Of a stretch of DNA of 41,451 nt, positions 2,078 through 10,485 are shown piece by piece. The translations under genes were made by a program, and so were the position numbers. The DNA lies in NCBI GenBank assembly GCA_902496645.1, contig CABVBR010000001.1, positions 1-41,451 of the forward strand. The letters are read 5' to 3'. This DNA is from an uncultured Collinsella sp. GTDB taxonomy: Bacteria; Actinomycetota; Coriobacteriia; Coriobacteriales; Coriobacteriaceae. Each line of letters starts with the position of its first letter. Positions within the stretch are counted from its first letter, which is position 1. A model generated the notes under the pieces. That model did not search any database. It saw nothing but the letters and a program-made list of their open reading frames with translations, and had not been told where the DNA came from.

Positions 2078-2983
2078 CTAGCCCGTTACGTAATACCACA
2101 CGACGGTGTCGCCATTCTTGAGAGTGTAATTACTACAGGCCGTCATGGGCGTTTCGCCGTTAACGGAGTACATCCAGCCACTCTTGTCGCCGTGCTCCAT
2201 CTCGGCCAGGCCGCCGATAGCGGCGACATACGTGCCGTACGACGTGCCGCGCGCATTCACGGAAAGCCCTAGGGCGCACAGGGCATCGTAGACCGTAGCG
2301 CCCTTGTTAAAGGTGAAGGTGCCACTAGAAGACACAGGATTGCCCACAGCGCTCGATGTGACCGAGACCGTTACCGTGACGTAGCCAGGCTGCTGCGAGC
2401 CGTCCTGATTGCCCGCAGAGGCGCCGCCACTGTTGGATGCAGACCCACCGCCGGACGCCGAGCCGCTGCCCGAAGAAGAGCTCGATCCACCGGCGGATTC
2501 GGAGCCCTGTCCGGCAGACGTGTTGCTGGACTTCTTGCCGCCTTTGCCTTCGGACTTCTTCTCCTTCGAATCCTTGTCCGACTTTTTGTCCGAAGACTCG
2601 GAATCGTCCTTGGAGTCAGATTCGTCCGAATCCTTGGACCCAGAGCTCGCATCATCCGAAGATTTTGAGCCCTTGGCTCCAGTCTTACCCGAAGCGGTAG
2701 TCGAGCCGGAAACCGACGCATCCTTGGCAACGACGCTCTCCCCCGTCACGGTCTCGACAATCCAATCGATGGACCAGGCACCGCTGACGGAAGGGTGAAC
2801 AAAGCCCAGCGAGACGACAATCAGCGCAATGCAGACGGCCGTCAGAACGCCAAGCAGCGCCTTGCGCCGAGGGGCGAACGCCGCCGAAGCGGCGCCCTTT
2901 TGCTTGGCATCGTCGAACTGAATGAACGACGAGTCGGGCTGCTTGGACTCGGCGTCCTGAGGCTTATTGGACACAGCCCTCAC
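2078..2983 (-). CDS. Membrane-anchored DUF4430 (transcobalamin C-terminal-like) domain protein
   Basis: N-terminal TM helix, long S/D/K/G low-complexity linker, C-terminal GATVYDAL...YVAAIGGLAE...SGWMYSVNG...L.NGD.VVWYY signature; abuts the upstream stop codon. Confidence 0.85.
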   Translation of the reverse strand: MRAVSNKPQDAESKQPDSSFIQFDDAKQKGAASAAFAPRRKALLGVLTAVCIALIVVSLGFVHPSVSGAWSIDWIVETVTGESVVAKDASVSGSTTASGKTGAKGSKSSDDASSGSKDSDESDSKDDSESSDKKSDKDSKEKKSEGKGGKKSSNTSAGQGSESAGGSSSSSGSGSASGGGSASNSGGASAGNQDGSQQPGYVTVTVSVTSSAVGNPVSSSGTFTFNKGATVYDALCALGLSVNARGTSYGTYVAAIGGLAEMEHGDKSGWMYSVNGETPMTACSNYTLKNGDTVVWYYVTG

Positions 2984-5900
2984 CTACCGACGCTTGGTAA
3001 ACACGAACACACCGATGACGGCAAGACCGATCACGCCAGCCGCAACGCCGACGATGGCAAGCGGATTGAAGCCAGACTGCTGCGCGGGAGCCTCAGCGGA
3101 CTTCTTAGCGGTAGTCGTGGCGGCCGCGCCCGTATCCGACTTGGAGCCGGACTTGCTGGACTTCTTATCAGACTTCTTGCTGTCCTTCTTGTCGGACTTG
3201 TCGGAATCCTTCTTGGAATCCTTGCCGTCCTTGGTCTCGGTCTTGGTCGTGGTGGACACCGGCTTTTGGCCCGGAGCAACAGCACCGCCAGTCTGCTGGC
3301 CGTTTGTGCCGTTACCGGAGCCAGAACCAGCACCGGCATTACCCGAGCCGCCATTGGAGCCGCCATTGCCGCCGTTACCACCAGGGGTAACGGCATTCTT
3401 GACCCACTTGGCATACAGCGTCATATCAGCCGTCACCGCAACGCTAAAGTCATACGCCTCCGTACAAGCCTCGTCGGTATACCAACCAGCGAAGGTGTAG
3501 CCCTCGCGCGTCGGATCCGCCGGCTTGGCGATAGAGCCGTTGGCGGCCGTAGTCTGAAAATCGACCTTGGACCCCTCGCCAGCGCTAAACGAAACCTTAA
3601 CGCCAGCATTCAGCTTGAACAGCGTGCCAGAGTCGTTGATGTAGTACAAGTTGCCCTGGGCATCACAAGCAATTGGCGAGTCACAGAAGTTGTAGTGGCC
3701 TGTTGCGCTAAACACGCCAGAAGCCTCAGTGTCACCCAACTTGTAACGATATACGCCACCGCCCGAGGTGTAGTTAACGTAATCAGAGCTCTCGCCATAG
3801 TTAACCGTAAAGTAGACATACGCCTCTTCGCCCTGGACACTCACCAGCGGAGCGCCCTTGATACCACCAGTAGGAAGCGCAGCGTCATCGGCAGACGAAA
3901 CCAGCGTCTTGGCAAAGTCGTGGGCCAGATCAATAATCGCTAGCGCAGAGCCGCCAGCAACCTCGCCGCCAACAATCAGCTTGCCATCATACATCGTAGG
4001 CACACACGCGCAGCCGGTAAGGCCAAGGTCAACTACGCGCTCCTCGGTAATACGCGAAGCGGCATCCGCATCGCGTGAGTCGCCATCAGAAATCGCCAAC
4101 ACGTGTAGCTTGCCGTCGCGCGAGATGAGATAGGCATGGCTGCCGTCATCCGAAAGCACGCAGGTGGAGTTGACAACGGCACCAACCGAAACACTTCCGA
4201 GCACATCACCCGTCGACTTGCTGAGCATCTCGACGGTACCGGCACTGGTGGGAACCAAGACAAAGTCATCACCCACCGTCGCGCCCGTCCAGTAATAGCC
4301 CTCATCAGGATTAACATGCTGCCAAGAAACAGCGCCGGTCAGGATATTAATACGCGTCAGATGACCGTTATTGTACGTACTCGTTCCATAGTCGACATCA
4401 ACGGTGCCGACATAGAGGTAATTGCCATCAACCGTCAGCTGAGAATTCGACTGAGCAGTCCTGCTCACGGAGTCAGTGACCCAAACCGTTGTGAGCGCGT
4501 CAGCCGTCAGGGCCTGGACCGCACCGCCGTCAAGCGGAACGATAACCAAACCGTTCGCATAAATCGGGCGCGAGGTGTAACCGACCGCAGCCTTAAGATT
4601 CGACTCGGCAAGGACCTTGCCCGACTCGGCGTCAATCTTTAACAAACGCTTATTGACGGCAAGATACACGTTGCCGTTCACGACGATAGGCTCACTCGCG
4701 TTGGGATACGCCGAACCGGAATACGCCTTCCAATCGAACGTCCAAGAGCTCGCTAGCGCACCCGTAGGCGTCGAAACGTTCTCGACCGCCGCATTGGACT
4801 TGCCGTCCCAATCGGACTTCCAATCGGTCGGACGCGGGGCGCTCGGATTGACTACGACCTCGTCGGGATTGGGAACCGCATCGCCGGCAGCATAAGCCCA
4901 GACGATCTCGTCGCGCGACTTGAGCACGTAGTCGCTATCGAGTTGAGATCCGGGAACACCGTTAACAAAGTACGACCAAGCGCCAGCCAACTTATTAGTG
5001 CCGTCAAGCGGGGAGACAAGGCTGTGAACGCCCCAGAAGCCCAGCTGGTCGTACATCTCAGACTCGATGCCCAAAGCATCGAAGTAGGCGGTAGTGGCGT
5101 CCTTGATCGTCGTGCCCTCAACAAACACCTGCGTCGAAGGATCGGTCCAGCGCTGTGCCTTATCGCCCTTCTTGCCGATGATCTCCATCGAGACAGAAAC
5201 TTGACCGGGCATGGTGCCATCGGAACCATAGACCCAGGTAATCTCATCGCCGGCCTTGAGCGTGTAGTTGCCTGCGCCGACATTGGCCTTCTTGCCGTTG
5301 ACAAAGAACTGCCAGTATTTCCAGGTACTCTCGTTAACCTGCTCGGTCGAAAGCGTCACGTTCTTATTGAACGGTGACGTCAGAGAATTGAGGAACCAAC
5401 CGTACGAGCCCTTGCCCGTGTCGGCGCCAATACCGGCCTGCTTAAAGACCTGCTCGGAAAGATCGGCGGCAGTTGCGCCCTCTTCCACCAGTGCAGTCGT
5501 AGGCTGCGCCCACGTCTGCTGAGCACCCGAAGCGTCCTGACCGACAACGGTGCAGCTTACCGAAAGCCGGTCGGTGGGTGCAGCGTCGCCGTACTTCGAG
5601 TAGCACCAGACGACAGAGTCGCCCGCCTCGAGGGAGTAGCTGCCAGCGCCCACCGATGCAGCGACGCCGTTGATGAACAGCTGCCAATAGGCGCCCGTAG
5701 CATGGTCGTATGCAAGAGTACGATCCGGCTCGAAAGGCGACGTAATAGAATTGAGCACCCAGCCCCAAGAACCATTGGGGTCGTAGTCGGCCTTGAGACC
5801 GGCCTGCTTAAAGAGCTCTTCGGAAAGATCGGCGGCCGTCGAGCCGTTCTTGAGCGTGTACTGCGAAGCGGCAGCCCACGTCTGCTGCTTGCCCTTGGCA

Positions 5901-10168: not shown

Positions 10169-10310
10169 TTGTCTCCTATTGTCTGAACTTGGGACATTGC
10201 CCAGCGGCTGCCCCACGTCATCGCGCACATTGCGCTCGAGTACCCCCATCGGGGTCCCCCTTCCCTCCAGAGCCCAACGCGTGCCGGCGGCATGCGCCGC
10301 GGCCGCGTGC

Positions 10311-10485
10311 AAGATGGGAGGCGATCCGACTTAACCTTAACGGCCCGGGCGCGCCGTCCGATCTGCGACGCGAACATCCCGGGTCAAGAGGAATTACGGT
10401 TACTGGTACAGCCGGGGACTTGCACCCCGATTCTCCCAAACGCGCAGGAAAACTGCACATTCGTGCGTCTCCGCACCACCATCTA
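10311..10485 (-). promoter_or_regulatory. Cobalamin riboswitch (somewhat atypical)
   Basis: Minus strand reads AGATGGT...GGGAGAATCGGGGTGCAAGTCCCCGGCTGTACCAGTAACCGTAA...AAGTCGGATCGCCTCCCATCT. This matches the Cbl core (GGGAA, T-loop hairpin, AC[T/C]GTAA, AG[T/C]C.GA B12 box), and the ends AGATGG/CCATCT pair. It lies upstream of DUF4430 genes. Confidence 0.8.

Follow-up and report, generated by a model that had tools for sequence, protein, structure and literature searches.

What is a cobalamin-type RNA leader doing in front of the genes of two predicted surface proteins that share DUF4430 domains? This question is raised by a two-gene operon on the minus strand of a 41,451-nt stretch of DNA from an uncultured Collinsella sp. 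(assembly GCA_902496645.1, contig CABVBR010000001.1, positions 1 to 41,451), hereafter the window, to which all coordinates refer unless another contig is named. The operon consists of a large open reading frame (ORF; 2984..10312, 2442 codons) directly followed by a small one (2078..2983, 301 codons), and the leader contains a candidate aptamer of the cobalamin clan with an AdoCbl-II-like core, running from the 5' strand of helix P1 to its 3' strand (10312..10484, minus strand). Judging from sequence and predicted structure, B12-repressed capture of corrinoids at the cell surface, on behalf of an importer encoded elsewhere in the genome, is probably what this operon is for.

Conservation of the leader and its linkage to DUF4430 genes

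The 321-nt leader aligns over its full length, at 91-96% identity, in 55 of the 60 other genomes of the genus, while four gave a partial alignment and one none. At 29 loci of the genus, which had been picked by leader similarity, both the leader and the neighbouring ABC1-kinase gene are alignable over at least 60% in 29/29 cases (median identities of 93.0 and 92.5%, respectively). By the same measure, the 5' end of the large ORF is alignable at 5/29 loci (90.7%) and the 311-nt spacer upstream of the leader at 0/29, with no identity value.

The secondary structure was assessed on six leaders, four from the genus and two from two other families, using 37 base pairs that comprise P1, two extra hairpins, P3, P4, P5, the base of P6 and the platform hairpin, and that were partly derived from the tested sequences themselves. 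As a whole, 91.3% of the cells are paired vs. 36-47% in slid controls, and compensatory changes are seen at 17 of the 37 pairs vs. 3-5 in these controls; none of 500 shuffles reached the observed values. P5 and the base of P6 never vary among the six leaders, the core junction columns are invariant in 6/6, and the inner helices of the P6 extension described below change compensatorily among three species.

In other families of the order, homologous leaders exceed the Rfam cut-off (42.3 and 44.3 bits) and match the present leader column by column; those of sister families match the whole AdoCbl-II model and precede DUF4430 genes. A same-strand upstream cobalamin riboswitch above the Rfam cut-off was found at five of 13 DUF4430 loci in the order, ten of which belong to other families and three to divergent members of the same genus. 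Of 121 genomes sampled from the order, 40 gave AdoCbl-II matches at E<=1e-3, the cut-off being exceeded in 12. Downstream of 29 AdoCbl-II loci across the order, a DUF4430 domain is encoded within 1.5 kb at 11, a CbiK gene is present at three, a large ORF with aBig_2 or GLUG at two, and a toroid domain within 1.5 kb, a CbiM gene and a radical-SAM gene at one each; the first ORF has no Pfam match at nine loci, and no ORF was found at the remaining one. The linkage between this riboswitch and DUF4430 is recurrent in the order.

As for the match to known RNA families, the leader misses the gathering score of both models of the cobalamin clan (Rfam CL00101, i.e. RF00174 and RF01689). A gathering-threshold search of the whole window returned no match. 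In E-value mode, AdoCbl-II (RF01689) gave 30.3 bits for a cut-off of 36.5 (10347-10437, E 5e-5, or 3.8e-5 at the scale of the whole genome), covering model positions 16-73 of 81, and Cobalamin (RF00174) gave 15.4 bits for a cut-off of 31.5 (E 0.1). Scores are below the cut-off in all four genomes of the genus that yielded a match (28.7-31.3 bits), and, in minimum-free-energy folding, the leader does no better than shuffled sequences (z -1.66). The core of the clan is nevertheless kept: the GGGA-type junction J3/4, P4, P5 and the base of P6 resemble those of AdoCbl-II, with posterior values near 1 over positions 16-73. What the leader adds, and what neither Rfam model contains, are two 5' hairpins between P1 and P3 and an extension of P6 of about 69 nt, to which the low score against both models is attributed. 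The leader of another genome (G037), which Rfam aligns over its full length, served to place the B12-box-like 3' strand by homology; there, the 3' strands of P6 and P3 fall within a B12-box-like stretch that immediately precedes the 3' strand of P1.

A sequence-only reading had called the leader a B12-type riboswitch. Although the Rfam check falls short of the cut-off with both models, the conservation in the genus, the covariation and the above-cut-off homologous leaders speak for the claim, and the leader is very probably a genuine cobalamin-clan aptamer, part of a functional riboswitch that the Rfam thresholds miss. These thresholds would then overlook a conserved Coriobacteriia variant of the cobalamin aptamer. 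Concerning expression, RNA-library contigs of three runs, all from one sample of a relative, cover positions 9630-10574 (leader and 5' end of the ORF), and one RNA-library run contains a 239-nt contig spanning exactly 10265-10503. This hints at the presence of the leader in RNA libraries, with the reservation that the 14 sequencing runs matching the region all do so with small shares and that the contigs carry no ends, strand or level.

Predicted control of the operon

The large ORF is open from a TTG at 10312, located inside the RNA element, and counts 2442 amino acids (aa) from there. The start is more likely the ATG at 10249, which follows a strong Shine-Dalgarno sequence at a distance of six bases and gives a protein of 2421 aa. 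In the expression platform (10250..10311, minus strand), a CUGG motif (10267-10270) overlaps this Shine-Dalgarno sequence (GGAGGG, 10263-10268) and is complementary to the CCAG of loop L5 (10403-10406), both motifs being invariant in the 6/6 aligned leaders. A terminator scan found no terminator-like site between 10250 and 10484, i.e. from the aptamer to the start codon. Occlusion of the ribosome site by a kissing loop occurs in cobalamin riboswitches, and we infer that L5 may play this part here.

A candidate extended -10 element (TGnTAnnAT type; 10509..10517, minus strand), proposed from the sequence, lies about 25 nt upstream of the aptamer. The motif TGnTAC(A/C/G)AT or TGnTAGGAT occurs at the same place in five of the six leaders, the sixth (G032) having TACAAT without the TG; a consensus promoter scan upstream of the aptamer called no promoter. 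Transcription would begin some 20 nt upstream of the aptamer. Once filled with a cobamide, the aptamer would let L5 pair with CUGG over the Shine-Dalgarno sequence and so block translation of the large gene, and the output of the abutting small gene would fall along with it; when B12 is scarce, both proteins would be made.

The large surface protein

The large gene (2984..10249, minus strand) encodes a protein of several modules, whose residues are numbered below from the TTG at 10312 (protein P0001, 2442 aa). An N-terminal signal peptide or hydrophobic segment (10022..10093, residues 74-97) and an acidic low-complexity stretch between it and the following repeats were both read from the translation. 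Next come about seven immunoglobulin (Ig)-like repeats of about 105 aa (7478..9745, residues ~190-945). A BLASTP comparison of the protein with itself gave no rows, and the repeats were therefore placed by motif: a repeat-end motif was matched five times by pattern, and two more repeats were recognised by eye. A weak match to the ZirU family covers residues 513-709. The repeats are followed by an aBig_2 (atrophied bacterial Ig) domain (6758..7042, residues 1091-1185, Pfam 40.8 bits).

Three tandem DUF4430/transcobalamin-beta-like (SLBB) domains were then detected by Pfam (4829..5905, residues ~1470-1828). They total 100.1 bits over three stretches, for a cut-off of 23.8, with copies at genome coordinates 5597-5845, 5225-5479 and 4889-5113 that score 47.1, 49.9 and 28.8 bits in the genome-wide search. 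The next module, a PQQ_2/BamB-like beta-propeller (3593..4837, residues 1826-2240), has a weak Pfam match to Beta-prop_ACSF4, and is also supported by a PQQ_2 match in the orthologue of genome G006 (53.8 bits) and by an ESM Atlas feature score of 0.95 to PQQ_2 clusters. A Flg_new (Listeria-Bacteroides repeat) domain (3407..3598; Pfam 67.6 bits, TIGR02543 40.2 bits) comes after it, and a G/S/N/K-rich linker of about 100 aa leads to a C-terminal membrane-anchor helix followed by TKRR (3002..3079). As read from the translation, like this helix, the C-terminus has no LPXTG motif. The sequence-only reading had proposed an exported protein of about 2400 aa, anchored at its C-terminus and carrying three DUF4430 domains, and the three Pfam stretches, the terminal helix and the basic tail bear it out.

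The orthologue in one other species of the genus has 1310 aa, with four DUF4430 domains, the propeller and Flg_new; in another species it has 1680 aa, with two DUF4430 domains detected, aBig_2, PQQ_2 and Flg_new. The DUF4430 array, propeller, Flg_new and anchor are therefore taken as the conserved core. The Ig-like repeat region varies in length between species, and it is this region that makes the present copy of 2421-2442 aa a giant.

The small protein and the DUF4430 fold

The small gene (2078..2983, minus strand) encodes 301 aa from a GTG at 2983, which abuts the TAG of the large gene, or 298 aa from a GTG at 2974; public gene calls for near-identical small proteins are of 298 aa, which fits the latter start. 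One near-identical homologue is attributed by its source to Collinsella aerofaciens, and homologues were found in 24/24 genomes of the same genus. The protein comprises a membrane helix (residues ~42-62), an S/D/K/G-rich low-complexity linker of about 160 residues and, at the C-terminus, a DUF4430 domain (residues 228-299, nt 2087-2302; Pfam 71.1 bits, cut-off 23.8). A hairpin with 16-nt arms (2020-2035 and 2042-2057, minus strand; 94% complementary) and a 6-nt loop is located at the end of the operon (2020..2057). The second membrane-tethered DUF4430 gene, without a gap, and the hairpin behind it are thus as the sequence-only reading had them.

Pfam finds no DUF4430 match in the genome besides the four in the operon, and 12 columns within DUF4430 are invariant across these four in their alignment. 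An AlphaFold2 model of the domain of the small protein, built from an alignment of 65 sequences, has a predicted local distance difference test (pLDDT) value of 94 and is a beta-grasp fold, with a helix at 42-48 followed by a hairpin of strands 53-58 and 61-67. This beta-hairpin insertion after the helix is what the available text of PMC1796856 uses to define the transcobalamin-type domain. When the model was compared with the PDB by Foldseek, all 19 matches at E<=1e-3 were either the beta domain of transcobalamin, haptocorrin or intrinsic factor, or the bacterial structure 3u7z (template modelling (TM) scores of 0.68-0.77), and the next matches, at E of about 0.08, were MoaD/ubiquitin-like proteins. 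For the beta domains of transcobalamin, intrinsic factor and haptocorrin (5no0, 5np4, 2bb5, 2pmv and 4kki), TM scores are 0.70-0.76 and identities 15-20%. The earlier suggestion that DUF4430 resembles the beta domain of transcobalamin/intrinsic factor therefore agrees with the structural comparison of the small-protein domain. As for sequence searches of the PDB, those with both proteins returned only low-complexity and Flg_new/internalin matches and no transcobalamin, and a profile search with the small-protein family alignment was swamped by low-complexity linker columns and gave spurious matches only.

In a representative library, the small-protein domain has 6460 relatives at E<=1e-3, among which many are proteins of 250-350 aa with a C-terminal domain, and others are giants with several copies. 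Fourteen large relatives were scanned: 13 have SLH anchors, nine a toroid, one a PQQ_2 propeller and one FIVAR. In view of these relatives, giant multi-DUF4430 surface proteins are considered a recurrent, as yet unnamed type, from whose large members the Collinsella protein differs by its C-terminal anchor helix and the lack of a toroid.

B12 physiology, candidate importers and a second riboswitch

In the source genome (88% complete, 245 contigs), a single protein with B12-binding domains was found, which is MetH-like (Pterin_bind, B12-binding_2, B12-binding), and CobS was not found; by its gene content, the organism seems to use B12 without assembling the cofactor. The sequence-only reading had proposed a search for unlinked importers, and candidates do exist: one operon with FecCD, ATP-binding cassette (ABC) and binding-protein genes on contig C12, for which NCBIfam leaves B12, haem and siderophore undistinguished, and three CbiQ/EcfT-type genes, i.e. 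energy-coupling factor (ECF) modules. None of these is linked to the DUF4430 operon. Directly before the FecCD operon, contig C12 carries three ORFs (489, 1034 and 484 aa; L075, 869-6884, plus strand) that match nothing in Pfam or NCBIfam.

In sister species (L083, G003:C8; L084, G024:C9), a weak RF00174 match of 15-16 bits stands before an operon encoding a secreted CbiK-type chelatase-fold protein, a 210-aa protein without assignment, a 523-aa Peripla_BP_2 protein, FecCD and an ABC ATPase. It is likely a B12 or tetrapyrrole importer; a tblastn search of the 88%-complete source genome did not find such a CbiK-FecCD operon.

A second cobalamin riboswitch, above the cut-off (RF00174, 40.9 bits), was found on contig C135 (L076; 956-1086, plus strand). 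It leads a giant secreted protein (1283-5503, plus strand) of at least 1407 aa, which carries FIVAR and runs off the contig. The last 310 residues have 90 homologues, of which 28 carry PF14478 (DUF4430) and 28 toroid families of the prenyltransferase/squalene-cyclase type. An AlphaFold2 model of this C-terminal domain (pLDDT 91.8) is an alpha/alpha toroid, for which Foldseek lists terpene cyclases and prenyltransferases first, with rat transcobalamin at rank 29 (E 2.6e-3, TM 0.55) and intrinsic factor at rank 49. Given this ranking, the fold is regarded as generic, and the link to DUF4430 consists in the frequent fusion. The orthologue in genome G003 ends like the large protein of the DUF4430 operon, with a low-complexity linker, a membrane helix and a basic tail. 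In the source genome, contig C135 is the sole match to the toroid query.

Proposed function and rival explanations

In the reading that we hold to be probable, the large protein would be held in the membrane by its C-terminal helix, and its low-complexity linker could cross the wall. From there outward would follow Flg_new, the beta-propeller, the three DUF4430 domains and, outermost, the species-variable Ig-like repeats. In the small protein, which is anchored by its N-terminal helix, a flexible linker of about 160 residues would carry the single DUF4430 domain. Like the isolated beta domain of transcobalamin, the DUF4430 domains of both proteins would bind corrinoids, and pass them on to an unlinked importer, for which the FecCD-type ABC system and the three ECF modules are the candidates. 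A hand-off from the large protein to the small one and the capture of corrinoids from host carriers, both put forward by the sequence-only reading, would be further possibilities.

Besides the Rfam scores and the fold statistics of the leader, several points weigh against surface capture of corrinoids. A family scan of the window ORFs found no transporter gene in or adjoining the operon, as the sequence-only reading had noted for the operon itself. The candidate importers are without a detected riboswitch, since the genome has just two RF00174 matches at E<=1. The pairing of L5 with CUGG involves invariant bases only and shows no covariation, and no U tract follows the terminal hairpin at 2020-2057. 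At the protein level, the domains of the large protein retain only five of the nine invariant columns of the small-protein family alignment, and 3u7z, the sole solved bacterial member of DUF4430, comes from Ruminococcus gnavus and is titled 'putative metal binding protein'. A literature search, limited to one library, found no published corrinoid-binding measurement for bacterial DUF4430 proteins and neither a Gram-positive surface B12 binder nor a Collinsella capture system; of the eight papers there that mention DUF4430, none deals with a bacterial function. Finally, high affinity in transcobalamin needs the alpha domain too, and neither protein of the operon has one.

How do other explanations fare with the same evidence? 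The operon could serve to hoard corrinoids, either as a surface reservoir or to keep them from competitors, in which case neither the small protein nor a specific importer would be a dedicated recipient. The lack of a transporter in the operon, the lack of a candidate importer with a detected riboswitch and the presence of four DUF4430 domains per operon would all suit such a role, and surface reservoirs are described for Bacteroides BtuJ in the available text of two reports (PMC13616437; bioRxiv 10.1101/2025.07.01.662609). We find it unlikely nonetheless: the pairing of a large with a small, membrane-proximal DUF4430 protein is conserved in the genus, with the small gene in 24/24 genomes, which suggests two roles and not a multiplication of one, and a B12 user without CobS still needs import. 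That the ligand is haem or another tetrapyrrole, as argued for Lactobacillus sakei Lsa1839/Lsa1840, appears improbable. The sole experimental paper on such proteins does argue for haem (bioRxiv 10.1101/864751), and the riboswitch-like leader of the sister species stands before genes for a FecCD system and a secreted protein with a CbiK-type chelatase fold. However, as far as the available text of that paper goes, it is docking that supports the binding of haem by the L. sakei proteins themselves; the present leader belongs to the cobalamin clan, the same RNA class repeatedly precedes DUF4430 genes, and the only carriers among the fold matches of DUF4430 are corrinoid carriers.

More than half of the large protein is made of Ig-like repeats and other adhesin-type modules, and the repeat region varies strongly between species, as in surface adhesins; moreover, the available text of PMC1796856 suggests that such modules tether proteins to polysaccharide. 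The protein might therefore be mainly an adhesin or wall-associated protein, whose Ig-like, Flg_new and propeller modules bind glycans of the host or of bacteria and whose DUF4430 domains bind some other soluble ligand. This leaves the conserved cobalamin-type leader unexplained, and what is conserved in the protein is the DUF4430 array and propeller, not the repeats, so that we judge such a main role quite improbable, both roles being compatible in any case. Highly improbable, in our view, is a leader that is a decayed or re-purposed relative of cobalamin riboswitches and no longer responds to B12. Its unusual peripheral elements, and scores below the cut-off in each of the four matching genomes of the genus (28.7-31.3 bits), would be expected of such a relict, but the leader is conserved as well as a housekeeping gene while its flanks diverge, its helices are kept by compensatory change, and its core junction nucleotides are invariant.

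A more elaborate version of corrinoid capture, which we consider doubtful, would see in the DUF4430-array protein and the C135 toroid protein a transcobalamin split in trans, each half behind its own cobalamin riboswitch. A beta domain would seize the corrinoid first, and the toroid of the protein next to it would then close over the ligand, yielding a multivalent, high-affinity capture layer that could compete with host and bacterial carriers; from this layer, the ligand would be brought to the membrane by the small tethered beta protein. A clamp of this kind is conceivable because separately expressed alpha and beta domains of transcobalamin assemble on cobalamin, according to the available text of PMC5599065. 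Against it stands the distribution of the toroid protein, found in 6/61 genomes of the genus with one query, vs. a nearly universal DUF4430 operon, for which reason the toroid is regarded as an accessory and not as an obligate partner.

Neighbouring features

Upstream, the neighbour of the operon is the ABC1-kinase gene, which ends at 10832; downstream lie convergent plus-strand genes, ending in a strong plus-strand terminator at 1698-1727. The candidate promoter of the riboswitch is directly preceded by a terminator-like hairpin with a T run (10525-10548, minus strand), about 285 nt past the end of the ABC1-kinase gene. An ORF at 1063..1842 (minus strand) might have been a third gene of the operon or a hidden transporter, but this was rejected: it matches no family, its translation lacks hydrophobic segments and resembles a spurious frame, and it overlaps plus-strand ORFs, including 1264..1671, which ends at the terminator 1698-1727.

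In the intergenic region between the terminal hairpin of the operon and the convergent plus-strand genes (1784-2009), a 44-nt unit is present in four copies with a spacing of 58-62 nt. Each copy is internally palindromic (GGGAYRC...TTTCC...GGAAA...RTCCC) and shares 64-75% identity with the reference copy; the array could be a repetitive extragenic palindromic (REP)-like element or a set of protein-binding sites. Further along the window, six minus-strand ORFs of 170-411 aa (16721-22176) lie between folate genes and a helix-turn-helix gene, one with an N-terminal zinc ribbon and five without Pfam match. Also on the minus strand, a 444-aa ORF (23850-25184) has weak matches of the zinc-ribbon type (Cas12f1-like TNB and TiaS ribbon), both below the cut-off.

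Relation to known systems and significance

In the gut, B12 and its analogues are subject to competition, and their capture by Bacteroides is known in molecular detail. In the Bacteroides systems, the beta-propeller BtuG takes B12 from intrinsic factor (PMC6143338), BtuG, BtuH and BtuJ are riboswitch-controlled surface corrinoid binders that feed a transporter (PMC6143338; PMC8941943), and a multi-protein extracellular relay has been proposed (PMC13616437), all as given in the available text of these papers. The Collinsella propeller matches PQQ_2/BamB-like families only, in Pfam as in the Atlas, and falls outside the BtuG family. As a whole, the proteins of the operon belong to families unrelated to BtuG, BtuH and BtuJ, in a Gram-positive-type envelope and without a TonB-dependent partner, so that the analogy is one of logic and not of homology.

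In the Isd/NEAT system of Firmicutes, wall-spanning surface receptors pass haem inward to a membrane transporter. The proteins of the Collinsella operon have no NEAT domain (Pfam) and no LPXTG sortase signal, which reduces the likeness to Isd/NEAT relays drawn by the sequence-only reading to an analogy.

Among two-domain carriers, the isolated beta domain of transcobalamin holds cobalamin (PDB 5np4), while the alpha domain purifies without it, as reported in the available text of PMC5599065. Unlike in these carriers, the Collinsella beta domains are in tandem and membrane-anchored, with no alpha/alpha toroid in either chain (Pfam). In L. sakei, Lsa1839 (beta-like) and Lsa1840 (alpha-like) are exported proteins of the ECF-like operon lsa1836-1840; the available text of bioRxiv 10.1101/864751 proposes that they likewise supply a membrane transporter with a tetrapyrrole caught outside the cell. 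These are small, ECF-linked and argued to serve haem, whereas the Collinsella operon pairs a giant with a tethered small protein behind a cobalamin-type leader, without a transporter.

The closest precedent is a prediction. In 2007, Burroughs, Balaji, Iyer and Aravind proposed that bacterial transcobalamin-like SLBB surface proteins scavenge B12 (PMC1796856). The available text of their paper describes signal peptides and anchors, fusions that commonly involve the toroid and also Ig, FIVAR and beta-propeller modules, and operons in which a second paralogous SLBB protein is often encoded; the genes generally stand beside CbiO/CbiQ, in organisms without B12 synthesis, and riboswitches go unmentioned there. 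The surface beta-grasp domain, the Ig and propeller fusions and the second paralogue are all found in the Collinsella operon, which differs by its lack of transporter and toroid and by its riboswitch. It is thus a further case of the kind predicted in 2007, with a riboswitch lead that the available text of the prediction does not have.

The operon is present in essentially every sampled genome of the genus. It offers a concrete test case for the 2007 prediction. Its value lies in being tractable, in a cultivable genus of the human gut, and not in a new principle. If surface capture of corrinoids holds true, DUF4430 would gain a function, and the B12 carriers of animals would have working bacterial counterparts; it would then be asked which cobamides are selected, and whether host carriers can be stripped.

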